DNA from: Nitrospinaceae bacterium
Lineage (GTDB): Bacteria; Nitrospinota; Nitrospinia; Nitrospinales; Nitrospinaceae
Assembly (NCBI GenBank): GCA_965237905.1
Contig: OZ250172.1
Coordinates: 2,336,001 to 2,400,000, forward strand
Reading direction: 5' to 3'
DNA length: 64,000 nt
How positions within the stretch are numbered: position 1 is the first letter of the stretch; every line of letters starts with the position of its first letter. The notes beneath the pieces were generated by a model. The model saw only the letters and a list, made by a program, of their open reading frames with translations. It was not told the DNA's origin and searched no databases. The position numbers were made by a program, and so were the translations under genes. Below are positions 1-24,551 of this stretch, piece by piece.

Positions 1-1479
1 TTTTATAAAGCTCTCCAGGAGGTTTCCAAAGCCCGGGAGGAGGCCGACCGCCTGAGGGAATTCGCCGAGTCCTCCAATAAATCCAAAAGCATCTTTCTTT
101 CCGTCATGAGTCATGAGATTCGCACTCCCCTGAGCGTCATTTTGGGATATGCTCAAATCCTGCAAAGAGATCCTTTATTAAATTCAGAGCAAAAGGATTT
201 TGTCGGGAAAGTAGAAACCAGCGGGAATCATCTTCTCGAGCTGGTTAACGATCTTCTCGATATCTCCAAAATCGAAGCGGGTGAAGCAGTACTAAACTTA
301 ACCGACTTTGACCTTCATGAGCTTATTGATGGACTTGCGCTGATGTTCAGGAATCGATGTGAAACGAAGGACCTGAGATTCTCCTCGGAGGGAATGGGTG
401 AAAAGCCAATTTATGTTCATGGGGATGAAGGAAAACTGCGCCAGATCCTGGTTAATCTATTGGGGAATGCGGTTAAATTCACCGGCGAGGGAGAGGTGAC
501 TTTGACTCTGGAAAGCCAGCCGGATAACAAATTCAGGTTTACCGTCAGCGATACCGGAAACGGCATCCGCCCCGAGGATCAAGTCAATATCTTCGAACTG
601 TTCAAACAGGGAGATGAAGGGCTCAGTAAGGGAGGCACCGGATTGGGATTGGCGATTGCCTGGAAACTATCAGAGCTGATGAATGGAGAACTCTCCCTGG
701 AATCTGAAATTAATAAAGGTTCCCACTTTTCTTTTGCCTTGGAATTACAGCCTGCAAAAAATCCGGTTCCAGCGCGATCGAGAAGAAACCGCAAAGTGAA
801 AAGGCTGGCGGGAGGGGTGCACTTGAAAGCGTTGGTGGTTGATGATGTTGAAGTAAACCGAGTTATGCTGTGTAAGATTCTGAGATCCATCGGGGTTGAT
901 ATTATTGAAGCAGAAGATGGGCAAAAGGCGATTGAGAAGCTCAGGGAATTTGAGCCCGATATTATTTTTATGGACAAACATATGCCCGTCATGAGCGGAG
1001 AGGAAGCAACCAGGAGGATTTCTAAGAAATATGGGGCGGAGCGATTCAAAATCGTCGGTGTTACGGCCTCTGCACTTTCCCATGAGCAAGAAGTTATGTT
1101 AACTGCCGGATGCAGCGTTGTCATTGGTAAGCCTTTTCGAGTCGAGCAAATTTTTAAATGTATTCAAGATCTCCTGGGTGTGGAGTATGAATATGAAGAT
1201 GCCCGGAAAGATCAGAAAAAAAGTCCAAAGAAAACTTCGCCTCAATCGAATGAATTTTCTGATATGAATATTCCTGCCAAGATGTTCCTGGAATTTAAAG
1301 ATAGTATTGATAAGGGTGATTCCTCTGCATTGGAAAAACAGCTAGCCAACTTTGGCGCTTTGGGTGATAAAGAAAAACTCCTGGAAACGCGCCTTTCAGC
1401 TTTAGTCAAGGAAGACGATTTTGAAGGGATTTTGGATATATTGGAAAAAATTCCGGTGGTTGGGATCATGCATGACTAA
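1..1479 (+). CDS. Hybrid sensor histidine kinase/response regulator (HisKA-HATPase-REC), 5'-truncated by the window edge
   Basis: The frame is open from base 1 (FYKALQEVSKAREEAD...KSIFLSVMSHEIRTPL). It has an H-box (SHEIRTPL), N-box (QILVNLLGNAVKFT), G-boxes (DTGNGI, GGTGLGL) and a receiver domain (LVVDD...IFMD...KPF). Confidence 0.95.
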   Translation, partial: FYKALQEVSKAREEADRLREFAESSNKSKSIFLSVMSHEIRTPLSVILGYAQILQRDPLLNSEQKDFVGKVETSGNHLLELVNDLLDISKIEAGEAVLNLTDFDLHELIDGLALMFRNRCETKDLRFSSEGMGEKPIYVHGDEGKLRQILVNLLGNAVKFTGEGEVTLTLESQPDNKFRFTVSDTGNGIRPEDQVNIFELFKQGDEGLSKGGTGLGLAIAWKLSELMNGELSLESEINKGSHFSFALELQPAKNPVPARSRRNRKVKRLAGGVHLKALVVDDVEVNRVMLCKILRSIGVDIIEAEDGQKAIEKLREFEPDIIFMDKHMPVMSGEEATRRISKKYGAERFKIVGVTASALSHEQEVMLTAGCSVVIGKPFRVEQIFKCIQDLLGVEYEYEDARKDQKKSPKKTSPQSNEFSDMNIPAKMFLEFKDSIDKGDSSALEKQLANFGALGDKEKLLETRLSALVKEDDFEGILDILEKIPVVGIMHD

Positions 1480-1494
1480 AGAACAACACAGGTG

Positions 1495-3504
1495 TTACGC
1501 TTGCCAAAATAACCTGAGAATATTTTCATCTTCCAATGCAGAGATCACCATCACCAGCCACGCAGTTCCCGCCACTGACGAATTCCTGGAAAACTGATAA
1601 CGAAGATATTCCGTGGCATAGGGCAAGCCACCTTCTCTGTCCTGCAGTTTTACCATCGATTTTATTAATTCCACGGCTTGTTCATTTTTTTTCAATTTTA
1701 GATACGCCATGGCGACCCCTAAAGAGCCTTCAGGCCAAATCATGGGGAGGTCATTCCAGTTTTTCTCTGGAGCTTCAGGATAAAAGAGGGTGTTTAACTC
1801 GGTGTCTTCATAGAGAAGCAGGTCGGCGTAAGGTTTGTAGCCTTGATGTTGATTGGATTTGACAAGATAACCGGCAGTGGAATTTAATGATGTTAAGGCT
1901 TTGGATTCTTCCCCGACAGCCTGGAGAAATACCGCTCCCCATGAGGCGCAGTCGAGTGCCTTGGCAGGGTCGGCCCCGTCAAGGCGCTGGCCTCTATTGA
2001 GCTGACCGGTTTTCTCGTTCCAGGATTTTTTAACCATTGATTGCTTGAGGATATTTGCAGGAGACGCATACTTTTTTTCCCCGGTCAGTACGGCCAAGTC
2101 GCGCAGTAAAAAGTAAATATCAATATTATGCTCTATGCTGGCCCATTGGATGGAGCCGGGAATAAAATATTCCTCAATAGTATTGATCTCTTTGTTCCAT
2201 CGATAAGAATATCGGCCTTCCCCGCCTGTAAAGAAACCGTATCGGGGATCTGTTGGATCCGTGATCTGTCGCAAAAGGATTTTGTCAGCAATCGATTGGG
2301 CAAGCCTCAGATGGTTCATTGCTTCATTGTCCTGCTGAAGCAAATTCGGATTATCTGTCAACCGGGTTTTTAAATAAAAGGTGATGGCATAACCCAGCCA
2401 GGCAGAGGCTCCGCTACGCACGATGGCTCCGGCATGATCGTTTTTATTGGGCCAGGAGTTATGAGTATTAAAGGTAAACCAGAGATCATTATCCGGGGAA
2501 AGGACACGCGAGGAGGCTTCAATGATCCGTTCTGCCAGGCTATATTCCCCAACCATGGAAAACGCAATAACGGCCAAGGCATTGTCATAAAGAGAGGCCT
2601 TGCTGAAAACGTAGCGATAAACTTCCGAATCTTTGGGAACTTTGTAGCTGATTAAAAGATTTCTTCGGTCCTGAGCGGGTTCTTTAACAATGCTATTCGG
2701 AACGACCTGCGATTTGAGCCAGGCGACGGCCTTTTCCTTGTAGGGAGTCCATTCCGTGCGGACGGATTTTTTTTCCGAATCCACTTTTGAGAGGACGGGG
2801 GTAAATGTTTCGGCGACTTCACTCTTATTCAGGTTCACCTTCAATTCGGAGAGTTGCTTGATAAAATCGAGGGCACTCTTTTCAGCATCCTCCAGGGAGG
2901 GGTCAATGATAACGGACAAACGCAGCATGACCAGGCCATCGGTGATATTGCGGCGGGAATCGGGCCACAAATACCAGTACAACACGAGATGCTTTGTGTC
3001 CTCTTTTTCGACGACTGCGTAGCGTACTTGGAAAACTTCATTTCTTAAGCTTATGGATTTAAACCGTCTTTCTTCAACTTTCCAACCGTCTCCGATATAA
3101 CAGACCTCAGGCGTATGAAACTGGCTCTCGTTGGTGCCGTGTACGGCCATTAAGTAAATTGCCGCATTGGTTTTAGGATTCTTATAGAAACGGTGGTAAA
3201 GGATGTTGGGATCATTCGAATCCAGATTTTCACCTCCCCAGTCTCCGAGTTGAAATGGAATATTTTTCAGGTTCGGTTTGTAAAGATAATCCGTATTGGA
3301 AACGAATTTTCCTTCATGCGACGTTGAGAAGTAATGGGAGGTATCCGAAGTGAACTTATAAACTTTGGAAATGGAGGAATCCGCTTTGTGTGCGCCATCC
3401 CCCGTAGAGTTGCATTGGCTACAGCCAGCTCCCGTTGCGAATAACAGGCAACAAGACCAGAGGTAAAGGAAAAGACGCGATTTATTATTAAGCTTCTTTT
3501 GCAT
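1495..3504 (-). CDS. EpsI-family (exosortase-associated) domain fused to a putative (alpha/alpha)-barrel glycoside-hydrolase-like domain; possible lipoprotein
   Basis: EpsI-type motifs HTPEVCYIGDGW and LVLYWYLW..MLRLS. The C-terminal half is helical with SLYDNALA, SIEHNID, ALDCASWG, IWPEGS and SVAGTAW. The hydrophobic N-terminus ends in GAGC (lipobox-like). I prefer the ATG at 3504 to the ORF-track start at 3522. Confidence 0.75.
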   Translation of the reverse strand: MQKKLNNKSRLFLYLWSCCLLFATGAGCSQCNSTGDGAHKADSSISKVYKFTSDTSHYFSTSHEGKFVSNTDYLYKPNLKNIPFQLGDWGGENLDSNDPNILYHRFYKNPKTNAAIYLMAVHGTNESQFHTPEVCYIGDGWKVEERRFKSISLRNEVFQVRYAVVEKEDTKHLVLYWYLWPDSRRNITDGLVMLRLSVIIDPSLEDAEKSALDFIKQLSELKVNLNKSEVAETFTPVLSKVDSEKKSVRTEWTPYKEKAVAWLKSQVVPNSIVKEPAQDRRNLLISYKVPKDSEVYRYVFSKASLYDNALAVIAFSMVGEYSLAERIIEASSRVLSPDNDLWFTFNTHNSWPNKNDHAGAIVRSGASAWLGYAITFYLKTRLTDNPNLLQQDNEAMNHLRLAQSIADKILLRQITDPTDPRYGFFTGGEGRYSYRWNKEINTIEEYFIPGSIQWASIEHNIDIYFLLRDLAVLTGEKKYASPANILKQSMVKKSWNEKTGQLNRGQRLDGADPAKALDCASWGAVFLQAVGEESKALTSLNSTAGYLVKSNQHQGYKPYADLLLYEDTELNTLFYPEAPEKNWNDLPMIWPEGSLGVAMAYLKLKKNEQAVELIKSMVKLQDREGGLPYATEYLRYQFSRNSSVAGTAWLVMVISALEDENILRLFWQA

Positions 3505-4312
3505 GTGGACGATTAAATCCAAAGACGATTAAATACCAGGGGATAAATAATAAGATAAGAGTAAAGATAAAAAATATAATGTTGCCCGTATCATGCCAGA
3601 AATCGTGCGCGGCGGTGGCTCCGTAAGAGTTTGCCACGATGAACAATGTCACGATTCGAAGCAGGTTTCCCAACATCGCAGTTGGGACGATGAGAAGGTA
3701 TAAATAAATCTTTTTACACGATGAAGTCTTCGTAAAATAGACGATGGGAACCATCAGGGTCAAAAGAGCAATGAGTGACTGAATACCACTCGATGGCTCA
3801 CCGATTAAAAAAGTGGCATTCGGGAGATATACCGTGGCCCCTTCAGAACTGATCTGGTATCCAAAGATCTTCATAAGACCGGTTGAAAGGGCTGTCATGG
3901 CAAATTGAAGAAACGCGGTCAGTTCCGGCAGAAAAGGAATGGGGACCGCTATTATCGGGAACAACAACGGGAAGCGCAGGCGATGGGCCGGAATATAGTT
4001 TGAAAGCAGATAAACGATAGAGAGCAGGGTGAAAAAAATCGGGACCGTTTTCAGGTAATTGAGACCGGTCGTTATTCCAATGAGATATAAAACGATACTG
4101 GCTACCAGGAAATAAATCCAAAGATGGTTTTTGCCCTCGGTAGCTTTGGATTTTACAATCCTATGTACCGTCATGGCGATCGCCGCTAAAGCGACGACGA
4201 AGCCATGCTGGTAGTAGGGATTGACGATCCACGACTCAATCAACCAGCGCATCGGCTGGAAATAGGCAAACCCGCCACCCACCAGCAGAATCAGGGCTAA
4301 AGCAACCTTCAT
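3488..4312 (-). CDS. Exosortase/archaeosortase-family membrane protein (Ser at the catalytic Cys position)
   Basis: Multi-pass hydrophobic protein with PYYQHG, 'IGEPSSGIQSL' (canonical ..E-A-C-S-G..S-L), NLLRI (Arg) and FWHD (His). It lies next to an EpsI gene. Confidence 0.9.
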   Translation of the reverse strand: MKVALALILLVGGGFAYFQPMRWLIESWIVNPYYQHGFVVALAAIAMTVHRIVKSKATEGKNHLWIYFLVASIVLYLIGITTGLNYLKTVPIFFTLLSIVYLLSNYIPAHRLRFPLLFPIIAVPIPFLPELTAFLQFAMTALSTGLMKIFGYQISSEGATVYLPNATFLIGEPSSGIQSLIALLTLMVPIVYFTKTSSCKKIYLYLLIVPTAMLGNLLRIVTLFIVANSYGATAAHDFWHDTGNIIFFIFTLILLFIPWYLIVFGFNRPHAKEA

Positions 4313-4596
4313 GCTTTCAGGGCGGGTTTCTTATTCCGATTTCGTATTAGATAAACGATACCCCCTGATACCAAAATCAGGGCTAAACCACCGGGAATCA
4401 TATATCGAATGGGGAACTCGGAAACCGTCGGAGGCGGGCCACATTTGTTTCCTTGGCAAGTATGCCCAGGCTTATGATGTGCCTCGGCAACCGATACCAT
4501 GCCAATGGGCCCCAAGCTCAAGGCTGAAAATAAAACCGCCCCAAAAAATGCGGTCACAAGAACAAAATTGACTGGTTTTTCAAATAAACGTTTCAT
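4309..4596 (-). CDS. Small exported protein with a PEP/PEF-CTERM-like sorting tail (VSEFP-TM-basic)
   Basis: Signal peptide ending AEA, then HHKPGHTCQGNKCGPPPT, then VSEFP, a hydrophobic helix and RNRNKK. Its stop overlaps the exosortase start (ATGA). Confidence 0.8.
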   Translation of the reverse strand: MKRLFEKPVNFVLVTAFFGAVLFSALSLGPIGMVSVAEAHHKPGHTCQGNKCGPPPTVSEFPIRYMIPGGLALILVSGGIVYLIRNRNKKPALKA

Positions 4597-4599
4597 AGG

Positions 4600-5565
4600 T
4601 TATTCCTTCTTCTTATTCGGCGGCCTCAATTCCAATACCACCCCTAACGGATACAACCACTGCAATAAGGGGTCGATCGTGAGCGCCATTTCTCCTTCTA
4701 AAGCTACATTATTAGTATCAAGGTTCAATCGAAAAAGGTCAATATCCCAGAATTTGCCTGCCGAGCCATCCCAATCATCTTTACCGGAAATAGCCTTGCC
4801 ATTGAGGAGATTGCCCGATCCATTGCCCGCCCGACCGTGACCCCCAATAATCCCAATAGAACTCGGCTTCATGAAACCCTTTGGTAAATGCGATGTTAGG
4901 GAGAGGTCGTAGGTCTCGCCGGGCTTCAGAACCTGAAGCCCCGCCAGAAAAATCACAGAATGGGTTTCATCGCTATTCCGATCTTCTGTGACGATCAATA
5001 AAGCCCATCCTGCGACCGAATAAGGGTCCTTTCCGCCAGGATTCACCCCATCCGAGGATAGGTTTTTCACCCCGTACGAGCCATTGCCCGTGACATACTG
5101 GGTGACATCCGCCAGTGCCGAATAAAGGATTCCCGTGGAGTTTTTCTTCCAAATGCGTTGAGCGGTGATCCGGTGTTCCTTGTTTTTGGGTCCAAGGAAA
5201 TGGATCTTTCCTGCATTTTTATTTTGTTCTTTAACTTCCCCTGACCAAATAAGGAAAGCTTTTTTAATCGGCGAGGACACCTTTAGTGGAACGCGACTTA
5301 CCTTTTTTATCTTCTTTTCGATTAACAAACTTTCCCCAATAATTTTAAATCCCAACCCTCGCGACGTCTGGCTATAAGTTGTTTCAAAACCATTTAAAGG
5401 TTTATGATTTACGGAGGAAAACTCGGAAGCTGAGAGGGGTTGAGATAATATTAAAAGGATTGTAAGTTGCAAAAAACATAAAAGGCCGAGAGGAAGGCGC
5501 CGACAAAAATATATTTTCTTCTTATCACTTCGGGAGATTTGCTTTATTGGTTTGATCTGAAACAC
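4600..5565 (-). CDS. Exported hypothetical protein, DUF3344-like beta-rich domain
   Basis: N-terminal hydrophobic segment followed by IKKAFLIWSG, ADVTQYVTGNGSY and AGWALLIV motifs reminiscent of DUF3344. The start codon is uncertain. Confidence 0.6.
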   Translation of the reverse strand: MFQIKPIKQISRSDKKKIYFCRRLPLGLLCFLQLTILLILSQPLSASEFSSVNHKPLNGFETTYSQTSRGLGFKIIGESLLIEKKIKKVSRVPLKVSSPIKKAFLIWSGEVKEQNKNAGKIHFLGPKNKEHRITAQRIWKKNSTGILYSALADVTQYVTGNGSYGVKNLSSDGVNPGGKDPYSVAGWALLIVTEDRNSDETHSVIFLAGLQVLKPGETYDLSLTSHLPKGFMKPSSIGIIGGHGRAGNGSGNLLNGKAISGKDDWDGSAGKFWDIDLFRLNLDTNNVALEGEMALTIDPLLQWLYPLGVVLELRPPNKKKE

Positions 5566-7526
5566 TATAACCTCAGCGTAAAATAAGTCTGATAAGTCTG
5601 TGTGATATCATCGTCTTTCAGAGTTTCAATGGAAAATCTTGCATCAACCGTCCAGGAAATCCAATCCGCAATCTCCCAGGTAAAGAATAAGGTTGTCGTA
5701 TGCTCCAACGACTTGTCCAAAGAGTTATAGGTGATGATGTAATCCGTCTCAAGGTTTAACTTTTCTTTAATTTTGTGCTGAAAATTGATAAAAAAGCTGT
5801 TTAATGTTTGGGCTGGTTTGGAGAGATGTCGGAACTGGTATTCCAACTGGATCTTTTTATAGAAAGGGAGGAGGTATCTCGCACGTATCACATAATCCTC
5901 GCGGGTGTCCGTTACACTGGAAAAATCACGCAACGAGGGATTCAGCAATAAAGAAAGGTGTTCGGTGATGTCGACATCATAAGAAGCTGAATAAATATTT
6001 ATACTATCCACTTCCGCGTTGCCGGAACTGGAAAAGGTATTTATAAACAATTCTCTTGAAACGGACGCAGTGAAATAATGCTTTCCGGATCTTTTGGTTG
6101 CAAGAAAGAAACCAGCAAGGTCGGTTTCTGAACCGTTCAGGTTGAAGGCGTTATTTCCCTTGTTTTCGAATTGACTGACATCAGCCCTGAACCGCAATGA
6201 AAAATTCTGGGGCAATTTTTGTGTAAAACCAACGGACCCAATGTTTGCGCCGATGTTATAAAGGGTCGCATTATTCACTTTATTTACTTGTTTCTGGTCT
6301 GAGCGTTGGTAGCGCAACTGTAATTTGGATTTTGCGGAAAAACTGTAAAAATAATCCGCGGTTTCACGTAAATCCCTGAAAACAACGTCGCGCAAACCCG
6401 TGCTTGGGTCCGGCTTATCCCGAAACTCAAAAAAGTCAAAGCGGGTGATCAGTGCAGGCGCTTGGAATTTTTGCAGGCGGTCGAGGGCTTGCCGTGCTTC
6501 CACATCGTTAGGTTGAATTTTCAGAGCCCTCCGGTATAGCCGTTCGGACACATCCCACTGATCATCATAAAAATAGGTTCTTCCCAGCCCGACCAGAGCT
6601 TCGGTGTTTTCAGGGTCAATTTCCAGCGCCTGGTTGTAAAGTTTTATGGATTCTTCGGTGTTTTTCTGCCAACTGTAAACCCGTCCCAGAGTGATGTAGC
6701 TGGAAACATCCCCACGAAACAAAGCGATTGATTTTTGAAGTTCCGTGACCGAATCATCCAGCCGTGCCATCCAACTGTATAGTGTTCCCAGCATCGCGCG
6801 AATGTCCTGGCGATCCGGCGCCATGTCCCTTGCCCGCTCCAGATACTTGATGGCATCCTCATGATTTCCTTCGTGGCTGTATAAAATCCCAGTGCCAATA
6901 ATGGCTTCCAGGTTGTTGGGATCCTTTTCAAGAATTCTTGAATACAGCTGAATGCCTTCCTTTGTCTTTCGCATCCATTTATATGTGGTGGCCAATCCCT
7001 TAATGGCTTCCATATTGTCCGGATAAATAGCGATGAGCTTCTTGAAGTAATCCACGCTCACTTCGAATTTTCTCTGCCAGGCGGTGACTTGGCCAAGCAG
7101 GAACAGGACGTCAAAACGTTTGGGATACTTGGAAAGGAGTTTCTTGAGGCCCTCTTCAGCGGGGGCGTGCTCTCCCTGCCAAGCCCTCAAGCGCAGGAGG
7201 CCTATTTCGCCATCCGGGATATCGGGCCGTATATCGCCAACTTTTCGATAGATGGCGCCGGCTTCCTGATATTTCTTTTGCCAGCTCAGGACCGTTGCAA
7301 GGCCGGTTAAGGCTTCAATATCCTTGGGATTTTCCTTTATCAGTTGTTGGTAAATGGCCGCCGCCTCATCGTAATTTCCCTTCCAACTCGTTTCGCGTGC
7401 TTTAAGCATTAAGGTGTCGCGTTCAATGGCCCATGCAGGGGAAGAGAACAAACAAAGCAATAGTGTCAGGAAGATGAAAAAGAGAATAGGGCGGGTCCAG
7501 CTGCTTTCTTTATTCTTCTGATTCAT
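5565..7526 (-). CDS. TPR-repeat protein with C-terminal outer-membrane beta-barrel (PgaA/BcsC/YaiO-like polysaccharide exporter)
   Basis: Signal peptide ending AWA and about 9 TPR-like repeats (EALTGLATVLSWQ, EALVGLGRTYFY). The C-terminal half has amphipathic beta-strands ending YQTYFTLRL. The ATG at 7526 overlaps the upstream stop (ORF track starts at 7565). Confidence 0.8.
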   Translation of the reverse strand: MNQKNKESSWTRPILFFIFLTLLLCLFSSPAWAIERDTLMLKARETSWKGNYDEAAAIYQQLIKENPKDIEALTGLATVLSWQKKYQEAGAIYRKVGDIRPDIPDGEIGLLRLRAWQGEHAPAEEGLKKLLSKYPKRFDVLFLLGQVTAWQRKFEVSVDYFKKLIAIYPDNMEAIKGLATTYKWMRKTKEGIQLYSRILEKDPNNLEAIIGTGILYSHEGNHEDAIKYLERARDMAPDRQDIRAMLGTLYSWMARLDDSVTELQKSIALFRGDVSSYITLGRVYSWQKNTEESIKLYNQALEIDPENTEALVGLGRTYFYDDQWDVSERLYRRALKIQPNDVEARQALDRLQKFQAPALITRFDFFEFRDKPDPSTGLRDVVFRDLRETADYFYSFSAKSKLQLRYQRSDQKQVNKVNNATLYNIGANIGSVGFTQKLPQNFSLRFRADVSQFENKGNNAFNLNGSETDLAGFFLATKRSGKHYFTASVSRELFINTFSSSGNAEVDSINIYSASYDVDITEHLSLLLNPSLRDFSSVTDTREDYVIRARYLLPFYKKIQLEYQFRHLSKPAQTLNSFFINFQHKIKEKLNLETDYIITYNSLDKSLEHTTTLFFTWEIADWISWTVDARFSIETLKDDDITQTYQTYFTLRL

Positions 7527-9457
7527 TGCTCTACTCGAATTGATGGTTTTTGTTTTTCCAACCAAGGTCGATAGCTTTCATATGAATGGATGACAAAACC
7601 GTTAAAGCTGGAAAACCGGCAAAGCTCTTTTTCCGAGTGTCGCATGACCTCTTCTAAATCCTTTAGTTTTTTCTGGTCGAAGGTGAGCTTGCTGGAGGGC
7701 ACCGGAACTCGGCGTGTCTGGTGTAAAAAAAGGGCTCCCTGGGCATCAAGGGTTTTCCCTTTCGGGATAAAGGTAATCCGGATTTTTTGTGAATCGATGG
7801 CTTTGATCATAAGCTGGCTGCCTCCCCCCTTTGGACCAAAGTCATATATTGTTTCATCGGGCAGCCAAACAGTTTCCAGACCGATGAAAACTTTTTTGCC
7901 TTTTTTGGCGGCATACCTGAGTTCATTGATTCCATGCGCAATCACTCCATCGGCACCATAGGCGATCGTTCGATAATCCATGATGCCTACATTATCCACC
8001 ACATCGATAATCCGTTCGCTCACCGGACGACCTTCGAGGGTTGCCGCAGGCTCAAAAAATTCATTGAAGCCATCAAACCAAAATGGGATATCGACGCCAA
8101 AGGCGAGTCCTGCTTTCTGAGCGAGTACCTGGGATTTCTCCGCCAACTCAAGATATTCTTTCAGCACGCTTTCTTTATGGATCCCTCCAAATTGAGGCAA
8201 AAGGTAGGGTTCGTTGTCATAGCGGATTCCGTAAAAGCGCTCCTTGGGTGAAACCGTTTGATTGTATTGAATGATTTTTTGGAGTAGGCCGATGGATCGA
8301 CCATGCCATTCTTTTAAAGCAAATCGGGGGTCTCCATCAAGGGCGTGAACTCTGATGCCGGCCTGGTTTAACTTGGAAAGCAGGGGACGCATCCCCGCTG
8401 AATCCCAGAAAATCGTCCACCCCGTTCCCTTTTTTTCAGCTTCATAGGGGATCTGCACAAAAAGGTCGGTGAGCTGGTGTCTTTTGCAAAAATCCAGAAA
8501 TGTTTTCTGTTCTTCCAGATTCTTTATTATTTTTTCCGTCTCCCATAACCACATGGCCTTATTGGATGAACACGACTGAGCCTGATCATTCCTTGCGCTT
8601 GCAATAGCGACTCCCTTTTTCTTTGTAAAAGCCAGGTCCTTTATAAAAATCCGCCCCGAACCGTTGCCAGCGACCTGAAAAACAACGTTCGCAAGTTCTT
8701 TTCGGTTGATGCGGGCACTCAACCGGGAAAGAGGAACCCAGGCGGTTTGCCAATCCTTTTTCGCTTTTCCATGAGGTAAAAAGGAGGAGACCTCTCCTAT
8801 CAAAAATGAGTCTTCCTTTTTCTCCATGGCTCGGTCTGCCATCCGGAGCAGGATTTTTTCATTGCCTTGCTCGCCCCGGAACGAGAAGGTCAGATAAGCA
8901 AAGGGAGTGGCATCCAAAAAAACCTGCTTGGAAGGAGGCGTTTTAAAATCAAAAAGGTGAATCCAAAAACCTGAGAAGCCCGGAGGTTGGTTCTCAAAAT
9001 AATAAGTCAGCGCGGGTCTATCATCCGAAGTCTGGGTGATGGACACAGTGGACTTTGAGGGATGTCTTGCAAACCCGTTAAAGTAGCCCCCCAGCCGATT
9101 GATATTTCCCTGGTTAAAATGGCTCACCAAAAAATAATCCCCCTCAAAGGAAGGAACGCGGCCACGGGGTCCTGCCGGGGTTTTTAGGATTGGCTTGTGT
9201 TCGCGAATATCATAGAGGACGATTTCATCCCCATCCTTTTTATGCAGGATACCCAACGAAAGATGGCCAATCTGTGAGGGGTGGCTTACACCCCAGTCGG
9301 GCAGGGAAATGATTTTGGATGGAAAAGAGTGGGCCACGTGGTTTGAAAAGCACAGGTTGCAGGAAACTGAAAGAAGGCTGAAAGCAAGCATGAGGCGGTA
9401 ACGATCCATCAGCTTGGGAAATAAGAAAACTTTAGCTAAAAGTTTATGGTATCGCAT
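7523..9457 (-). CDS. Exported carbohydrate-binding-like domain plus TIM-barrel glycoside-hydrolase-like domain
   Basis: The N-half is beta-sandwich-like (FSGFWIHL, YLTFSFRG, WQTAWVPL). The C-half has AMWLWE, HALDGDP, GIRYDNEPY, DIPFWFD, IMDYR and IGLET. It sits between the synthase and exporter genes. Confidence 0.6.
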   Translation of the reverse strand: MRYHKLLAKVFLFPKLMDRYRLMLAFSLLSVSCNLCFSNHVAHSFPSKIISLPDWGVSHPSQIGHLSLGILHKKDGDEIVLYDIREHKPILKTPAGPRGRVPSFEGDYFLVSHFNQGNINRLGGYFNGFARHPSKSTVSITQTSDDRPALTYYFENQPPGFSGFWIHLFDFKTPPSKQVFLDATPFAYLTFSFRGEQGNEKILLRMADRAMEKKEDSFLIGEVSSFLPHGKAKKDWQTAWVPLSRLSARINRKELANVVFQVAGNGSGRIFIKDLAFTKKKGVAIASARNDQAQSCSSNKAMWLWETEKIIKNLEEQKTFLDFCKRHQLTDLFVQIPYEAEKKGTGWTIFWDSAGMRPLLSKLNQAGIRVHALDGDPRFALKEWHGRSIGLLQKIIQYNQTVSPKERFYGIRYDNEPYLLPQFGGIHKESVLKEYLELAEKSQVLAQKAGLAFGVDIPFWFDGFNEFFEPAATLEGRPVSERIIDVVDNVGIMDYRTIAYGADGVIAHGINELRYAAKKGKKVFIGLETVWLPDETIYDFGPKGGGSQLMIKAIDSQKIRITFIPKGKTLDAQGALFLHQTRRVPVPSSKLTFDQKKLKDLEEVMRHSEKELCRFSSFNGFVIHSYESYRPWLEKQKPSIRVEQ

Positions 9458-9566
9458 AATAAATTTAAGGAAACCTTAGACAAATAATCGTCTCATTAAA
9501 TGATCAGAAAATCGCGGGAAAAATCTTGGGAGGCATCCCTTTTTTGCTTAAGTCTTCCTGCGAATT

Positions 9567-10991
9567 TTAAAAACCCTTTCGAACCATTTTTCCCCAGCCA
9601 CCTTTTTTGCCTGTAAAATATTGGAAAAGGCCCACCAATCTGTACCAGACGGTCAAAGGCCTGTACACAAATACCTCAATAAACGAGAGTGCAATAAGCT
9701 TCATTATCATAGAAGTGTTGGGGTACCGCTGATAGGTCATTTCTTCAAAAATAACGGATCCAATGGAAAGCAAAATATTAAGAACGATGGTGGCTAAAAT
9801 AAACAGATAAATAAGGGGGTAAGCGACCATATTTAACTGCCAGGACACAAAAAATAATAAGAATCCAAATACTTCAATTATGGGACCTAAACCTTCAGCA
9901 AACAAAAAAAATGGATACATCACCAAGCCTATGATTCCATACTTCGGATTAAATAACATTTTTTTGTTGCCCAGCAAACTCTCCAATAATCCCCGTTGCC
10001 ACCGTTTTCTTTGCAGGCCAAGCACATTAAGGGTTTCCGGGGCTTCCGTCCAGCAGACGGGGTCGGGGATAAATGTAATATTGTAGGGTTCCTTCTTTTC
10101 CCTTAACCGGGCATGGAGTCTCAAAACCAGTTCCATGTCTTCCCCCACAGAGGCTGTATTATATCCGCCAATTTCAATCACTTTATCTTTTTTGAAAATT
10201 CCGAAGGCCCCGGAGATGATGATCAAGCCATTGACTAGCGAAAAAGCCATCCTTCCTGCCAGAAAAGACCTGAAATATTCCATTACTTGAAACTTGCCCA
10301 AAAGGCTTTTTGGGAGGCCGATCTTAGTTACTCTTCCGTTAAATATCTCACACCCATTAGCAATTCGAATGGATCCACCCGCGGCTACTGTCGTGTGGTC
10401 TTCTGTAAAAGGACGGACGATCTTCACAAGAACATCCGGTTCCAAAATGGAGTCTGCATCTAAGGAGCATATCAATGGATATTTGGAAATATTAATGCCG
10501 GCATTCAAGGCATCGGCTTTCCCCCCGTTCTCTTTGTCAACCACGGTAAGGTTAGAGTAAGTTGATGACTCATAAATTCCTCTGATATTCTGGGAAGGGA
10601 GCTCTCTTTTGAAAACATTTTTTGTCTTTATCAAATCGAAAGAATTTAATAATTTCTCCAGAGTATTATCGCTGGAACCATCATTGATCAGAATAATTTC
10701 ATATGCCGGGTATTGCAATTGCAGTATTGATTTGAGGCTCTCTACAATAGTCGCTTGTTCGTTATAGGCAGGAACAAGTAATGATACCGGTTTGGCAAAA
10801 GGTGAGAGGAAAAGATTCTTCATCTCCAGGGACCGAACGTGATGAGAGTATTTCTTGATTGCGCGGAATGCGATCATCAACATCAAAATATATACGGTAT
10901 TGATAAAAACAAAATAACCGGTAATGAAATAATTATTGAAACGAATAAAAGGATAGAGGAAGTCTAAGACAGTTTGATCGATTGAGGTCAT
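9567..10991 (-). CDS. Processive GT2 glycosyltransferase (PgaC/IcaA/cellulose-synthase-like)
   Basis: VPAYNE, NDGSSD, ENGGKADALN, DADS, GEDMEL and QRKRW (D,D,D,QxxRW signature), with flanking TM helices. Confidence 0.93.
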   Translation of the reverse strand: MTSIDQTVLDFLYPFIRFNNYFITGYFVFINTVYILMLMIAFRAIKKYSHHVRSLEMKNLFLSPFAKPVSLLVPAYNEQATIVESLKSILQLQYPAYEIILINDGSSDNTLEKLLNSFDLIKTKNVFKRELPSQNIRGIYESSTYSNLTVVDKENGGKADALNAGINISKYPLICSLDADSILEPDVLVKIVRPFTEDHTTVAAGGSIRIANGCEIFNGRVTKIGLPKSLLGKFQVMEYFRSFLAGRMAFSLVNGLIIISGAFGIFKKDKVIEIGGYNTASVGEDMELVLRLHARLREKKEPYNITFIPDPVCWTEAPETLNVLGLQRKRWQRGLLESLLGNKKMLFNPKYGIIGLVMYPFFLFAEGLGPIIEVFGFLLFFVSWQLNMVAYPLIYLFILATIVLNILLSIGSVIFEEMTYQRYPNTSMIMKLIALSFIEVFVYRPLTVWYRLVGLFQYFTGKKGGWGKMVRKGF

Positions 10992-12376
10992 TGAGGCTTG
11001 GATAAAAATTGAGCGATGATACCCTTGGCGAAAGGGTCTCTAGTGTTTTTAAGAAAGTTTTGCAAGCATTTCTTGCCCGCTTCACCCATTTGGGATATTG
11101 CAGATGCGGAGTGAAATCGACACCACCAATCCCTATCTTCAAGTAACCGGGAGATGGGTCTCGCAGTGCTTTCATCCCCGAAAATACCCAGAGCTTTGGC
11201 AGACTGAGCCCTTATGACAGGATGTCCGCTATTCAGGTGATCGAGCAATAGAGGAATCGATTCTTCCGCTTCCAAATGGCCCAAAGCCTTAATCACGCTA
11301 ATCGTTTCTTCAACATTTTTTGAATTCTTTAAAAGATCGATCAGCACGGGCGCTCCTTCCACCCTTTTGATATATCCAATAAAATCGATCATTTTAATCC
11401 TGGCAGGCGCCGGGTATTTTTTATCCTTTTTGCTGAGGACTTCTTCGAGATTGATGGATTCATTATTCTCGTATTTAAGAATAATCTCATCCAATAGCTC
11501 CTCTGCCAAGTCTTCGTCTTCCAGTATAATGCTGACAGCCTTCTTTGAATTTTTCAAGCGGTTAATCAGCTTGGGCCCGCTTTCCGCTCTGGTGATTTGT
11601 TCGATGAGATTGGTGATTTTAAATCTGGCGGGTATGGGATATTTATCGACCTCTTGGCAAAGCAAAGTTTCAAGATTTATAGATCTCTTAAACTTAAGAA
11701 GAACCTCAGCGAACAGCTCCTCGGTAATGAGTTCGTTTTGGAGTAATGTGCTGACCACCTTTTTCATTAATGGGCGATCCCCCATTTTCAATAACGCGCC
11801 GGCGGCATTCAGGGCAACCGTGATTTCTTTATCATGCAATGCTTTGGTAAGATCCTTTATGTTGTTGGAATCCTTGAATACTCCCAACCTTTGAACGGCC
11901 AAGGCCCGTCTCCATGTGGAATTTGAATGTTTTAACTGACGACGCTCCCTTTTGACTACTCCGATTTCTCGTAAAATGTCGGTCATTCTTATCAGGCTGT
12001 CTCCCTTCATGTCATTTAAATAAGGGGTGATAAATTCCCCAAACAGTTCGTACTCACTTTTTTTTATGGTCTTTATTAAAGTTGAGATGTCTGCATCGTC
12101 AAGGATCAAAGGGAGAAAGTTTTGTTCCCAGACAACGAACTTACGGGATTTTAATTTTTGGTATCGATTGAATTTAAACCGTAGATAGATAACATATAAG
12201 AAAAGGAATACGGTGATCCCAATGAGAAGGAAAACAGAAAAAATCAGAGCAGTCGTGACCGGGTATTCCTGGAAGTGTTTATTAAAGGGAAAGAAAACCT
12301 GCTCGTTAATAAACCGCAAAAAGGAATTGTCGATTTTCAGATAACCGTCGAGTTCCCAGAATTTGGGAGAGTCCAT
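10988..12376 (-). CDS. HEAT-repeat protein with N-terminal membrane anchor
   Basis: One TM helix followed by PBS/HEAT-like repeats (RRALAVQRLG, IRAQSAKALG, WWCRFHSASAI). ATGA overlap with the GT2 gene. Confidence 0.85.
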   Translation of the reverse strand: MDSPKFWELDGYLKIDNSFLRFINEQVFFPFNKHFQEYPVTTALIFSVFLLIGITVFLFLYVIYLRFKFNRYQKLKSRKFVVWEQNFLPLILDDADISTLIKTIKKSEYELFGEFITPYLNDMKGDSLIRMTDILREIGVVKRERRQLKHSNSTWRRALAVQRLGVFKDSNNIKDLTKALHDKEITVALNAAGALLKMGDRPLMKKVVSTLLQNELITEELFAEVLLKFKRSINLETLLCQEVDKYPIPARFKITNLIEQITRAESGPKLINRLKNSKKAVSIILEDEDLAEELLDEIILKYENNESINLEEVLSKKDKKYPAPARIKMIDFIGYIKRVEGAPVLIDLLKNSKNVEETISVIKALGHLEAEESIPLLLDHLNSGHPVIRAQSAKALGIFGDESTARPISRLLEDRDWWCRFHSASAISQMGEAGKKCLQNFLKNTRDPFAKGIIAQFLSKPQ

Positions 12377-12456
12377 CGTAGGGAGACGAATTTATTAATA
12401 GGTGAAAAGTGTTGCCATGAGTCTGATCCTGGCAAGTCAGGCAAGGTGTGTTGAAA

Positions 12457-12825
12457 CTAATTTGACTTTAAAGCCCTATTTACCCTTAGTATTAATTCCG
12501 CCGGGCTGAAAGGTTTGGACATATAATCTTGAGCGCCCAGTTCCAATCCTTTGATGATATCCTTTTCCTGGGCTTTTGAAGTCAGCATGATTACAGGGAT
12601 GTCTTTTAATTTGTCATTCGCTTTGACTTTTTTGAGAATTTGAATGCCATCCATATAAGGGACCATAATATCTGAAATAATCAAATCGGGTTTGAATGTT
12701 TTCAATATTTCCAACGCTTTCAACCCATCATTGGCCCATGTCAGGTCATGTTTTTCCTTTTTTAATTTATACTCAATGATCTTCCATATATGGGCGTCAT
12801 CCTCAATGACCAACACTTTTGCCAT
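12457..12825 (-). CDS. Single-domain response regulator (CheY-like receiver)
   Basis: VLVIEDD, DLIISDIMVPYMDG, MLTS and KPFS motifs with no output domain. The ATG at 12825 is preceded by AAGAAGGT (ORF track starts at 12852). Confidence 0.93.
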   Translation of the reverse strand: MAKVLVIEDDAHIWKIIEYKLKKEKHDLTWANDGLKALEILKTFKPDLIISDIMVPYMDGIQILKKVKANDKLKDIPVIMLTSKAQEKDIIKGLELGAQDYMSKPFSPAELILRVNRALKSN

Positions 12826-13131: not shown

Positions 13132-15753
13132 ATGGAAAAATTAAAGTCGGTTATCCCGGCAGATGTATTGGCAGCGACCCAGGACCGGGTTGTTCGAAAC
13201 GCCTCTTCCAGAGACTATTATTTCTTGAAGCAAGGCGGTGGCGTCACCTTGGGGAATTCTCCCAGGGGCCGATTCGTTTATGGGTTTGATGGTTTTACTT
13301 TATGGTGCCAGGCCGATGGCCATATCTATGCTTCGGATGGCCTGCATCAGCTATTCTCTGCCACCAAAGAAGGAGACGAACCCTCTATCGCCTTTTTTCT
13401 CGACGTGTGGGGGAAGGTGATCTCTCTCCTGCCGACACCTTTTCTGGGTGACGGTGCGCAACGCTACACGGTGTCTGCCATCCATGCGACCTACTATTTT
13501 ACAGAATGGGAGGATATTGCGACCACCGTACGTGTGACGGCCAGCCCGACGAACCAACTGCTTTTTTCTCTCTTCGTTTCATTCCAGAAACCCCGTCAAA
13601 ATTGCCGCCTGTTAACCTATTGCTCTCCTTATGAAAAAGACGAGCTGGGTAAATCGGATGAAGATCGCTGGTTTCTGACGACAAAAACAACAAACCAGAT
13701 CAATCGGGACGGAAAATCAAGAGTCCTGTTTCCCCCTTGTTCCGTAACCGTCTTCGAAGATCCCGATCGATTTACATCGCTCACGCACCAATCGCTTCTC
13801 CGGGGGTCCTGTGCGCTGACTCCCGGAATCAAATTTCAGGACTATGAAAGTACCACCTCGCGCAAAGAGTTTGTTGGCGGCAATAACCGGAATCTGAATA
13901 ACCCCGTTGTTTTTGGAAGGCCACATTTTCCAGAGCAAAGGTCTGAAACGGTCTTTAATGATCAAGGCATATTTTCCAATGCGCTTTTTTTGGAGGCAGA
14001 GGGCCATTCAGCCCTGCGGCTCGATTATATATACCAAAGGGTGTTTAACCCAAGCGATTTGGAGAAGCTCGCCGGTGAGCCGGTAGTTCCCGTGCTTGTG
14101 GATAAAGCTGTTCAGGAAGTGGCGGATGAAACTTCGGGACATCTGCGTTGCCTGAAGATAGAGGGCTCATTTGATAAAAAGTACAGCGAACTCGATGATC
14201 AGGATTTTTTCTCATTTCTGATCACCCTGCAACATCAGGTAGCCGTTTGCTCCAAAATAAAAGGATATATGCAATTGGCCCGAAGATCGCTTGTGGGTAT
14301 CAGGGATGTGTTTCAGGCTTTAGAGGCCTATCTCTATTTCGCCCCGGAAAAAGCCAAAGAAAAAATACTGGAAGCGCTGGGTTACACCTGCTTGAGCGGC
14401 CGGTGCCTGAGGCAATATCTGCCTGGAAGCCCGATTGCAGACACGCGAGAATTTATTGACCAGGGGCTTTGGGTGATCAAAACGATCATCGAGTATGTCA
14501 AGGTAACAGGCGATCAATCCATTCTATCCGAAGAGGCGGGTTACCATGAAATCGTGGAGGACAACCCCTATATAGGAACAGTCAGGCCCATCGAAACCCA
14601 TGAGACGGTGCTCCTGCACTTGTTTAGGATACTTGAATATCTCATTAAAAATATAAATCCAAAAACCCAATTGTTGATGGCGTTGTATGGCGACTGGAAC
14701 GATGCCCTGGACGGTTTGGGTTTTACTGATAAAAAAGGCAAGCAATTCGGGACAGGCACCACTGTTATGGGAAGCCTGCAACTGTACCAAAACTGCAAGG
14801 ACATGATTGAGCTACTGCATTTTCTTGATTTGCAGGATAGCCACAAGGATGAGGTTGGGCTCTATCATAAAACAAAGGAAAAACTTTATTCGGGCCTGGT
14901 AAACAATGCGATCCTGGGTTCGGGTAGCGCAACACGAATCGCCCACGGTTTTGGAGATGGAGCGAAATATACCGTGGGGGGTCCCGAAGATCCTGATGGC
15001 GTTTCTCGATATGGTTTGACGAGTAACGCTTACTGGATAATCAGTGGTATTCACCAGGATGCAAAAACGAAAGAGGGCCTCGATCTGTTGCCCTCTATTG
15101 TGTCGGCTTATGAACAATTGGATGACAAATACGGATTGAGAACGTTTCACCCTGTCTTCGCCCGGGGAACGGAACATTGGTTTGGCCGCATACCCAGACT
15201 TCCTGCCGGTACAGCGGAAAATGGAGCCACCTACAATCACGCGACCCTGTTCGGAATTTGGTCGTTGTTCCAGGCAGGGCAATCCCAGGCGGCGTGGCGG
15301 CAATTGGAAAAAATGTTGCCGTTTACCTCCATACATAACAATTACAATCTCACGCCTTTCGTCATGCCTAATTCCTACATCCATAATATGGAGCAAGGGC
15401 TCGATGGAGAGTCCATGAACGATTGGCAAACGGGAAGCTCCAATGTTCTGCTTAAAATCCTGGTTTGGTATGTCTTCGGGTTTCGTCCGGAATTGAACCA
15501 TTTGAGAATACAGCCCGATCCCCGGAGTCCCCTGACTCAATTCAGCTACAGCGGAACCTACCAGAATAAAAACATCGTCATGAGTTACCAGAAAACCTCG
15601 GAGGTCAAGGAGCGGGTTATCGTTTGCAACGAAAAACCTCTCAAGCTATTTAGGGATGATGCATTAAACGCCCTGGTGGCCGACCTTCCTTGCGGCAAAC
15701 TCAAGAAAGAAAACCAAATCAAAATCTCCGACCCCCTGGTTATGGATCATTAG
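13132..15753 (+). CDS. GH94-like glycoside phosphorylase (cellobiose/chitobiose phosphorylase family)
   Basis: GIRDVFQ, GDWNDALD (catalytic Asp region), ENGATYNHA and WQTGS motifs in an 873-aa protein with no signal peptide. Confidence 0.85.
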   Translation: MEKLKSVIPADVLAATQDRVVRNASSRDYYFLKQGGGVTLGNSPRGRFVYGFDGFTLWCQADGHIYASDGLHQLFSATKEGDEPSIAFFLDVWGKVISLLPTPFLGDGAQRYTVSAIHATYYFTEWEDIATTVRVTASPTNQLLFSLFVSFQKPRQNCRLLTYCSPYEKDELGKSDEDRWFLTTKTTNQINRDGKSRVLFPPCSVTVFEDPDRFTSLTHQSLLRGSCALTPGIKFQDYESTTSRKEFVGGNNRNLNNPVVFGRPHFPEQRSETVFNDQGIFSNALFLEAEGHSALRLDYIYQRVFNPSDLEKLAGEPVVPVLVDKAVQEVADETSGHLRCLKIEGSFDKKYSELDDQDFFSFLITLQHQVAVCSKIKGYMQLARRSLVGIRDVFQALEAYLYFAPEKAKEKILEALGYTCLSGRCLRQYLPGSPIADTREFIDQGLWVIKTIIEYVKVTGDQSILSEEAGYHEIVEDNPYIGTVRPIETHETVLLHLFRILEYLIKNINPKTQLLMALYGDWNDALDGLGFTDKKGKQFGTGTTVMGSLQLYQNCKDMIELLHFLDLQDSHKDEVGLYHKTKEKLYSGLVNNAILGSGSATRIAHGFGDGAKYTVGGPEDPDGVSRYGLTSNAYWIISGIHQDAKTKEGLDLLPSIVSAYEQLDDKYGLRTFHPVFARGTEHWFGRIPRLPAGTAENGATYNHATLFGIWSLFQAGQSQAAWRQLEKMLPFTSIHNNYNLTPFVMPNSYIHNMEQGLDGESMNDWQTGSSNVLLKILVWYVFGFRPELNHLRIQPDPRSPLTQFSYSGTYQNKNIVMSYQKTSEVKERVIVCNEKPLKLFRDDALNALVADLPCGKLKKENQIKISDPLVMDH

Positions 15754-18797: not shown

Positions 18798-19130
18798 ATC
18801 TCCATCTCCTCAATTGAACAGGTTTATACGTCCTGAGTGCTTCCATGGCTCATCTCGTTTTTGCCGGATGCAAGGCAAGTTGACTTGTTTTGATGAAGGG
18901 GACCGCCTATCTCATTCGAAATGCCATAGATGTCTATTTAAGTGTAATGGCTAACACACTGATTTCAAAAGTGTTTTAAATTAGAGAGCTTACCACTTTT
19001 TAGGGAGTTGCCTGAAAGGGTAAAAAAGGCTTTTGAAGCCGGAAATGGCTCGGAACGGAAGGTATTTAATGGTACAATTACAGTTATGGTAAAAATATAA
19101 AACGTGGGCGTTTTTCCCGGAGTTTGTTCG

Positions 19131-19799
19131 ATGGCGGCTTGTCGCAGGTTTGCATGCCAATGGCTGGCGATACTCTTTCTTTCCGTGCTTCCAGTGAAAG
19201 AGGCTATTGCTTACGAGGGCCATCACTATTTTGGCGGTCAGTCGGTTTCCCTGTCCTTGAAGACTCTGGTCCAGCCTTGCGGAAAAATTCGGGCGCAATT
19301 GTATGCAACGACCCATGCCATGGAAGCCCCCATCGGAGACCAGGTTTTAAGTGACTGCTCCAAACCGCTTCAAATCAGTTTGCCGAAAGTCCGGGCTAAA
19401 ACGAAATTTACCCTGGAAATTGAATCTCTAACCAAAAAGGGATGGGTGGCTTCCGGCATTATTCCATTGCAGGCCTACCCGCAACAAATATTGACCCCTC
19501 TACGCGACTGGGCCGAGAAGAATGATCTTGTCGTGGCTGATTCCGACGGCAAACTGGAGCGGTTCCTCGAAAAACAGAATATTTCATTTACTGTGAATCG
19601 CCGGAAAACCCTGGAATCGCCGGAGGTTCATGTATTGGCAGGCGAGGGGGAAATTATTTTTAAGGAAGAGGCTGAAGGGATCCCAAAAATTTTTGTTAAA
19701 GGGAAAACGATCCTGGTAGAAATGCCTTTCCTGGATCAATTGGCTACACATCCTTCATTTCAATACGAATTCATTAAGATATTTCAGGAGATTTTGTAA
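19131..19799 (+). CDS. Exported hypothetical protein
   Basis: Signal-peptide-like N-terminus ending AIA; first gene of a co-oriented cluster. The start is uncertain (ORF track 19104). Confidence 0.65.
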   Translation: MAACRRFACQWLAILFLSVLPVKEAIAYEGHHYFGGQSVSLSLKTLVQPCGKIRAQLYATTHAMEAPIGDQVLSDCSKPLQISLPKVRAKTKFTLEIESLTKKGWVASGIIPLQAYPQQILTPLRDWAEKNDLVVADSDGKLERFLEKQNISFTVNRRKTLESPEVHVLAGEGEIIFKEEAEGIPKIFVKGKTILVEMPFLDQLATHPSFQYEFIKIFQEIL

Positions 19800-19824
19800 T
19801 CCCTACATATAAAGGAAAGCAATC

Positions 19825-20876: not shown

Positions 20877-20885
20877 GGTCATTCC

Positions 20886-24548: not shown

Positions 24549-24551
24549 AAG

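Follow-up and report, generated by a model that had tools for sequence, protein, structure and literature searches.

Within a 64,000-nucleotide (nt) stretch of the genome of a Nitrospinaceae bacterium (GCA_965237905.1, 96% complete; contig OZ250172.1, positions 2,336,001–2,400,000 of the forward strand; hereafter the window), nine co-oriented genes form a predicted synthase-type polysaccharide operon with an attached protein-sorting cassette, the exosortase of which carries serine at the position of the family's catalytic cysteine (Table 1). The system resembles a Pga-type synthase to which a dedicated sorting pair of the XrtG type has been added; by the tests applied, it is a member of neither group. 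It is a conserved system that joins two known kinds, and its surprising parts are the serine site and the alternation, among related loci, of the cassette with a polysaccharide deacetylase. The cassette and the synthase very probably serve one process; more tentatively, we propose that the exosortase cuts and anchors small peptides that help to hold the polymer at the cell surface.

Table 1. Operon genes in order of transcription, two sites within them, and neighbouring genes (positions in the window)
Feature	Position	Strand	Basis
Single-domain response regulator (receiver only)	12457..12825	-	PF00072 E 9e-29
Membrane-anchored HEAT-repeat protein	10988..12376	-	HEAT_2 E 8e-21; one predicted transmembrane segment
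Processive GT2 polymer synthase	9567..10991	-	PF00535 and Chitin_synth_2 matches; NDGS, DADS, GED and QRKRW motifs
Secreted protein with a CBM11/CBM30-like domain and an unassigned TIM-barrel glycoside-hydrolase fold	7523..9457	-	CBM30 E 2e-8
TPR array plus probable outer-membrane beta-barrel exporter	5565..7526	-	TPR matches clear
Secreted DUF3344-like protein, cassette marker gene	4600..5565	-	similar to unnamed clusters and to DUF3344 clusters (Atlas score 0.94-0.95)
Small CTERM sorting substrate, 95 aa	4309..4596	-	predicted signal peptide ending AEA39; mature part of ~14 residues
Sorting motif PPTVSEFP, residues 55-62	4411..4434	-	P55, P56 and E60 invariant in 18/18 aligned substrates
Exosortase-family membrane protein, Ser174/Arg219/His240 instead of Cys/Arg/His	3488..4312	-	PF09721 E 2e-40
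Codon TCG of Ser174, nucleophile position	3791..3793	-	read from sequence; Ser, not Cys
EpsI domain (~residues 45-220) plus (alpha/alpha)6 six-hairpin glycosidase fold (~250-669)	1495..3504	-	PF11984
Hybrid histidine kinase, C-terminal part (938 aa, start upstream of window)	106..1479	+	convergent to operon
GH94-type phosphorylase	13132..15753	+	PF17167; divergent from operon
Multi-transmembrane transporter-like gene, 833 aa	15755..18256	+	no Pfam or PDB match

All nine minus-strand open reading frames (ORFs) of the initial annotation, and the overlaps it named, are found in the sequence. Three junctions are 4-nt ATGA overlaps (10988/10991, 7523/7526 and 4309/4312), one overlap is of 1 nt (5565) and one of 17 nt (3488/3504), and a 3-nt gap lies at 4596/4600; the longer gaps separate the receiver gene from the HEAT gene (80 nt) and the GT2 gene from the first hydrolase gene (109 nt). 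Known families run across the operon (PF00072, HEAT, PF00535, TPR, PF09721 and PF11984/EpsI), and no operon protein reaches the cut-off of any named Pga, Bcs or exosortase subfamily. Other genomes repeat the same order gene by gene, so that it is not due to chance. The GC content of the block is 42–48%, against 50% genome-wide, a tRNA-Ala gene lies a few kb before the start of the block, and the nearest homologs among the matches listed carry Nitrospinota labels. A promoter and terminator scan (27 sites versus 18.8 ± 4.3 in shuffled sequences; 17 versus 14.7 ± 5.0) was not used as evidence.

The synthase half has the Pga/Bcs-like architecture that had been proposed for it, with a processive GT2, a TPR protein with a probable barrel and a periplasmic hydrolase fold. 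Processive membrane GT2 enzymes follow the motif scheme D, DxD, D, QxxRW, and the window's GT2 conforms to it. Its best NCBIfam match is PgaC/IcaA (155 bits, cut-off 422), followed by the XrtG-associated TIGR03111 (118 bits, cut-off 364). In the exporter, matches to PgaA and BcsC are restricted to the TPR part; a C-terminal aromatic ending, together with weak outer-membrane-barrel matches in 2 of 12 C-terminal pieces of homologs, suggests that the C-terminal region is a probable outer-membrane beta-barrel. Pfam and NCBIfam searches recognised no PgaD-like or cyclic di-GMP-binding subunit among the operon proteins. The receiver adjoins the HEAT and GT2 genes in many loci, even where the trio sits elsewhere in the genome, and HEAT is fused to GT2 in seven loci; a likely role for the receiver is to turn the synthase on or off by way of the HEAT protein. 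At L025 (11247-13283) and in similar spirochaete loci, the receiver that lies upstream of HEAT–GT2 is itself joined to ODP and GGDEF domains, which may point to oxygen or cyclic di-GMP input in these sister systems.

To place the operon among its relatives, we drew on two sets of loci. A scan with the hydrolase alignment supplied 78 loci, which are the best 78 of 194 confirmed; because they were picked by similarity, counts from them do not describe a random sample. A second scan, with a DUF3344-like alignment, supplied 33 metagenome loci. L106 and L107 have the same layouts as L009 and L021 and do not count as independent loci. An exosortase is present in 20 of the 78 loci, all 20 of which have EpsI fused to the six-hairpin domain, and there is no EpsI in the other 58. 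The EpsI–hydrolase unit of the initial annotation thus stands as a fusion, but the six-hairpin domain itself belongs to the synthase core and is sortase-free in those 58 loci. Thirteen exosortase loci include at least 5 kb of upstream sequence and are treated as informative: all 13 have the TPR and DUF3344-like genes, and in nine the GT2 gene shares the locus with the cassette. The GT2–exosortase synteny expected from the initial annotation is therefore present elsewhere, in four phylum-level groups (Nitrospinota, Elusimicrobiota, Candidatus Lindowbacteria and metagenome-assembled genomes labelled Deltaproteobacteria). In the second set, five loci end at the DUF3344-like gene; in the 28 with room downstream, that gene is always followed by a CTERM gene (28/28), 27 reach an exosortase and 6 show a GT2. 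Since the hydrolase-based and DUF3344-based loci both show this linkage, the cassette is, on the evidence of gene neighbourhoods, a real, mobile module bound to export genes. Where the halves separate, it is the receiver–HEAT–GT2 trio that can relocate within the genome, and the cassette remains with the TPR/export gene.

The two halves also travel together across genomes, as expected of a dedicated sorting cassette coupled to a synthase. We surveyed 120 genomes of the source phylum, 57 of them at least 90% complete, with the caveat that kin are not independent. The exosortase query matches 11 of the 120 (one distant, at 23% identity) and the GT2 query 10, a patchy distribution; among the 57 more complete genomes, a close exosortase ortholog occurs in seven, all seven have the GT2 ortholog, and GT2 is present in eight. 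Protein fusions tie the parts together further: exosortase, EpsI and hydrolase are joined in four proteins (P0047 and P0078-80), a six-hairpin hydrolase is fused to a GT2 in P0096, and the HEAT–GT2 fusions are noted above. Among the exosortase-family representatives, P0215 (955 aa) unites a GT2 with a Cys-type exosortase and EpsI, a further physical link between GT2 and exosortase.

The substrate of the cassette is small. Its C-terminal part consists of the PPTVSEFP motif, a transmembrane helix and a basic tail, and this sorting signal occurs on a single ORF of the source genome (E 8.5e-23; next best 0.016), so that the exosortase appears to have a private substrate class. A genome-wide substrate set was accordingly rejected, the signal being only on the gene adjacent to the exosortase, as was a known CTERM class, since no curated CTERM model passes on 12 substrates. 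The initial annotation spoke of one dedicated peptide, which holds in this genome; its relatives depart from it, with one to three tandem peptides per cassette. Conservation in these peptides is confined to the signal-peptidase site and the C-terminal signal, and the mature parts are hypervariable and 14–77 residues long. Nitrospinota substrates have PPTVSE[LF]P as their motif and those from elsewhere PSAPELP, PGAPELP, PSLPALP or PEVFEIS, and every variant precedes a hydrophobic helix and a basic tail. The script that calculated peptide charge parsed 33 of 49 mature peptides and skipped 16, most of them visibly Lys-rich; of those parsed, 26 are net positive, 4 near neutral and 3 negative. The DUF3344-like protein itself has zero Pfam or NCBIfam matches. 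In the Ser-type cassettes of L094 (651-1840) and L095 (3678-4882), the order is swapped and runs exosortase, peptide, EpsI–hydrolase. The source genome also has a second, Cys-type exosortase of 517 aa, followed by a 711-aa protein that ends in VPEP, a transmembrane helix and a basic tail (C1:952008-955693, + strand); this partner is the genome's single PF07589 protein above the cut-off, and the two form a separate dedicated pair.

The operon's exosortase is a clear member of its family (PF09721, 139 bits, cut-off 25.7; TIGR04178, 51 bits, cut-off 23; seven predicted transmembrane segments) and falls under the cut-off of every named subfamily (XrtA, 99.8 versus 208; XrtB, 61.2 versus 275). Six invariant residues define the family, in the motifs Cys-x-Gly, Asn-x-x-Arg and His-x-x-x-Gly (PMC1569441, in part). 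N216, R219 and H240 are kept here, but the nucleophile motif reads P-S-S-G, with Ser-Ser-Gly at 174–176, and the glycine follows the histidine at +3 rather than +4; the initial annotation had not remarked on the serine. A sequencing error or selenocysteine was rejected because the codon is TCG and serine recurs in 80 homologs: among 90 homologs, 88 of which span the nucleophile position, 80 have Ser/Arg/His and 8 have Cys/Arg/His. By comparison, the 150 best family representatives, clustered at 50%, divide into 144 with Cys/Arg/His, 5 with Ser/Arg/His and 1 with Cys/Arg/Asp. In a quick tree, 79 of the 80 serine sequences form one group (support 96) and one stands apart; cassettes outside the serine group retain cysteine. 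P0190 shows an apparently independent second Cys-to-Ser change (VPSSG) within a Cys-type clade, although as a single sequence it may be an error.

Because the cysteine is reported to be invariant in the family and critical in archaeosortase A (ArtA Cys173; PMC9263693, in part), Ser174 may mean a dead enzyme, which would count against the proposed cutting of the peptides. Several features suggest otherwise. In 18 related loci the serine is encoded by TCG (10), TCC (5) and TCA (3), the ratio of non-synonymous to synonymous substitution (dN/dS) is 0.10–0.16 in six pairs, some of them near saturation, and similar to that of neighbouring genes, and glycine lies at His+3 in 88 of 90 rows of the serine alignment versus His+4 in 120 of 144 cysteine representatives. 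Given serine fixed through synonymous codons, low dN/dS and a shifted glycine, the site looks like one that has been re-tuned rather than one that has decayed, although a role restricted to binding fits the same data. On sequence grounds we marginally favour a catalytically active serine exosortase.

The alternative that survives best, which we nonetheless consider unlikely, is that the serine form is a pseudo-enzyme that binds the uncut, membrane-anchored peptide and serves as a scaffold or sensor that holds the EpsI–hydrolase near the secretion channel, while cysteine forms elsewhere may cut. It accounts for the loss of a critical nucleophile and the displacement of the glycine after the histidine, and no replacement is apparent: a substitute catalytic cysteine elsewhere was rejected, as no cysteine column exceeds half of the serine rows. 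Purifying selection fits binding and catalysis equally well, as does the predicted complex of exosortase and peptide. That complex scores 0.42 against 0.00 for the best control, with contacts agreeing by at least 92% between runs and a partner pLDDT of at least 64. The score mark it passes is reached by 116 of 157 solved pairs and 2 of 215 mismatched pairs, and at 0.60 or below by only 18 solved pairs and both mismatches; the prediction weakly supports binding, because passes at such scores are more often wrong unless the pairing was likely beforehand. What speaks against a pseudo-enzyme is that serine, with arginine and histidine, is fixed throughout the Ser-type homologs (80/80), even at 34% identity and across synonymous codons, when a dead site would be expected to drift; that one cysteine sequence (P0185) lies within the serine group and has the same histidine loop as the serine forms; and that gene order and substrate layout match those of Cys-type cassettes.

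EpsI, given as of no known function in the available part of PMC1569441, is here fused to a carbohydrate-active domain, which suggests that it may act as a link to such a domain. The structural model of the EpsI–six-hairpin protein (pLDDT 89.8) matches MmpH (Z 34.9, rmsd 2.7, 320 aligned) and dextran dextrinase (Z 34.5) about equally well, and D307, E458, D462, D518 and E592 are invariant in an alignment of 41. The TIM-barrel protein (pLDDT 79.5) keeps D414, E416, D494 and E528 in an alignment of 12; its best fold match is Cwp19 (Z 18.0, rmsd 4.1, 256 aligned), followed by GH5 (Z 17.2), GH18-like (Z 16.2) and CBM11 (Z 16.2) folds. Neither hydrolase fold has a Pfam GH match, and their fold matches, at 5–16% identity, are tied among several families. 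Naming the polymer from the hydrolase folds or from GH94 was rejected, as the folds are ambiguous among GH5-like, GH18-like and Cwp19-like. In L061, L072, L074 and L075 the six-hairpin domain lies within very large proteins (930 to >6900 aa).

These folds bear on a further alternative, in which the peptide would serve as a primer or cap bound covalently to the glycan: it would be transferred by the exosortase to a sugar or glycolipid, a glycosidase fold would link it to the GT2 polymer by transglycosylation, and the TPR-barrel would export the product. Retaining enzymes keep two glutamates, and the TIM barrel has two invariant ones (E416 and E528). Also in keeping with this scheme, EpsI is joined to a carbohydrate-active fold at every one of the 20 cassette loci and to the exosortase itself in four proteins, and the mature peptide is hypervariable while its motif is fixed, as in a carrier tag. 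Yet the six-hairpin domain occurs without any peptide in 58 of the 78 loci, its nearest folds are hydrolases and epimerases (8–16% identity), and, the motif aside, no Ser, Thr or Asn acceptor is common to the mature peptides. Known synthase-dependent polymers are, moreover, described as not covalently attached in the available part of the epsSMASH study, which ties exosortases to Wzy-type loci (bioRxiv 10.64898/2025.12.21.693542). We regard a primer or cap as distinctly unlikely and consider that retention is probably non-covalent in the main, rather than through a peptide–glycan bond.

Our reading of what the cassette does starts from loci that lack it. In 31 of the 58 sortase-free loci, a protein of ~600 aa is encoded next to or near the six-hairpin gene, and all three that were tested match PF01522 (CE4 deacetylase). 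This cluster is found in 0 of the 20 sortase loci, 15 of which have at least 2 kb of downstream sequence. At the genome level, no such protein was detected in 5 cassette genomes of other phyla or in the 120 genomes of the source phylum (positive control, 5/5), and the source genome has no PF01522 match (control positive in 11 of 14). A quick GT2 tree of 42 rows, 7 of them labelled by genome and not by locus, requires eight changes for the cassette label and six for the deacetylase; the modules are intermixed on it and are sisters in two places. The DUF3344-like gene was blank in 5 deacetylase genomes, a result without a positive control that is not counted. A strict either/or was rejected because some loci have neither module. 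From this pattern we infer that cassette and deacetylase have comparable functions and act on a related polymer.

In poly-N-acetylglucosamine (PNAG) and Pel systems, deacetylation supplies the positive charge that retains the polymer, and it is because the two modules seem to do a comparable job that we read the cassette as a device for surface retention. In the scheme we tentatively prefer, the phosphorylated receiver would act on the GT2 through the membrane HEAT protein, and the GT2 would extrude a beta-linked polymer, somewhat more probably an N-acetylhexosamine than not, given that sister loci carry the CE4 deacetylase and that the best model is PgaC/IcaA. The two glycosidase folds would trim or clear the polymer and the TPR-barrel would export it. 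Ser174, with Arg219 and His240, would form an acyl-enzyme at P-x-x-V-S-E-x-P and transfer the peptide to an acceptor, either a lipid or a sugar, with the EpsI–hydrolase as periplasmic partner; the mostly basic peptide would then supply surface retention, as de-N-acetylation does in deacetylase-type loci. A stronger version, in which a serine-nucleophile exosortase joins the peptide covalently to the GT2 product or a lipid anchor and the cassette and deacetylase are interchangeable retention modules across phyla, strikes us as rather improbable.

Several observations weigh against this scheme. The GT2 scores under all curated cut-offs, and the CBM11/30-like domain and GH94 neighbours suggest a glucan rather than an N-acetylhexosamine polymer. 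Three parsed peptides (L019, L032 and L108) are strongly acidic, and the window's own mature peptide has only 14 residues and a net charge of +2, both a poor fit to a charge tether. The acidic peptides and the glucan-type neighbours are reasons not to regard surface retention as established. There is no deacetylase cluster in 27 of the 58 sortase-free loci (some of them short), and in G077 no cassette or deacetylase lies within 20 kb of the receiver–HEAT–GT2, TPR and six-hairpin genes. Finally, the GT2 is outside the locus in 4 of the 13 informative loci, two of which (Nitrospirota) have HEAT and GT2 on another stretch of the same genome, and in G018 and G019 the exosortase and the receiver–HEAT–GT2 genes are >1 Mb apart. 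Such separation, and the common occurrence of exosortases in extracellular polysaccharide (EPS) loci (PMC1569441, in part), would suit a cassette that is co-regulated yet mechanistically separate, displaying a small matrix or adhesion peptide like PEP-CTERM proteins beside Wzy-type loci, with the EpsI–hydrolase a merger of adjacent genes; this is very unlikely, as the fusion is kept in five phylum-level groups, the cassette is never found with the deacetylase, and the GT2 family is present in 5 of 5 cassette genomes checked beyond the locus and in 7 of 7 complete genomes.

Set against described systems, the pairing of an exosortase with a GT2 is not unprecedented, because XrtG/Firmicu-CTERM (TIGR03110, TIGR03111) already combines a dedicated exosortase, a single CTERM target and GT2s in one cluster (PMC12854382, in part); dedicated one-to-one exosortase systems are also described in the accessible text of bioRxiv 10.1101/2023.06.07.544157. 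The view of the initial annotation that the combination is undescribed thus needs qualifying, although our literature searches, made mainly on listings, revealed neither this operon nor a serine exosortase; the 2012 work that defined subfamilies (Haft, Payne, Selengut) may mention serine variants. XrtG is Gram-positive and lacks outer-membrane export, whereas the window's operon has a TPR/barrel, two glycosidase folds, EpsI, HEAT and receiver proteins, its target is a tiny peptide with another motif, and no XrtG or Firmicu-CTERM match appears at E 0.1. The sister loci resemble PgaABCD/IcaADBC in adding a CE4 deacetylase; the window's operon differs in its receiver and HEAT proteins and its sorting cassette, and the source genome is without that deacetylase (PgaB/IcaB). 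XrtA/XrtB systems with EpsI (Methylobacillus EpsH/EpsI, Zoogloea) share a PF09721 enzyme followed by EpsI, an EPS context and targets with a motif, transmembrane helix and basic tail. They serve many scattered PEP-CTERM proteins beside Wzx/Wzy loci, in contrast to the system described here, with its one to three adjacent peptides, PPTVSE[LF]P motif, glycosidase fold joined to EpsI and serine at the nucleophile position; the source genome is without multiple PEP-CTERM targets. Archaeosortase A of Haloferax volcanii, of the same family, cleaves at a tripartite signal before lipid attachment; it relies on Cys173, in an archaeal S-layer context with no polymer synthase, and is the only family member with tested catalytic residues according to the available parts of PMC9263693 and bioRxiv 10.1101/2023.06.07.544157. 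Up to 2018 there had been no experimental analysis of exosortases (PMC6098224, in part), and whether they are one-step transpeptidases, and with which acceptor, are posed as open questions there and in bioRxiv 10.1101/2023.06.07.544157.

The cassette is a minimal test case in this respect, with one enzyme, one 95-residue substrate and natural cysteine and serine versions that can be compared. If the serine exosortase proved to use its nucleophile, it would be the first in a family defined by an invariant cysteine, and if it joined the peptide covalently to the GT2 product or its lipid anchor, the polymer of a synthase-dependent system would be peptide-linked. If the cassette and the deacetylase are alternatives, nitrite oxidizers and several uncultured phyla would have a second way of holding synthase-made polymers on the cell.

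Genes around the operon may be accessory to it. Orthologs of the histidine kinase (69% identical) occupy the same position in L005 and L006, and from its position it is a candidate phosphodonor for the receiver. The GH94-type phosphorylase is distant from cellobiose and cyclic beta-1,2-glucan phosphorylases; a homolog adjoins the operon in L004, L009 and L011, with a transporter homolog in L011, and the pair is possibly an accessory for oligosaccharide salvage. Farther along the window, an 8026-aa ORF (27989-52069, + strand; 53–59% GC) contains many repeats rich in Gly and Asp, has the motif LEPRVLL near its N terminus and may be a very large adhesin or surface protein that is secreted. Elsewhere in the genome, an 11040-aa ORF, also a giant surface-protein candidate, adjoins the second exosortase locus (C1:959919-993041, - strand). 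Between the transporter-like gene and the 8026-aa ORF lies a cluster of secreted proteins (19104-26552, + strand), several of them CsgG-like or TPR-like by eye and one a 1220-aa multi-domain protein, in which the overlap of ORFs 19825-20457 and 20403-20876, read in different frames, may reflect a frameshift within a single gene.

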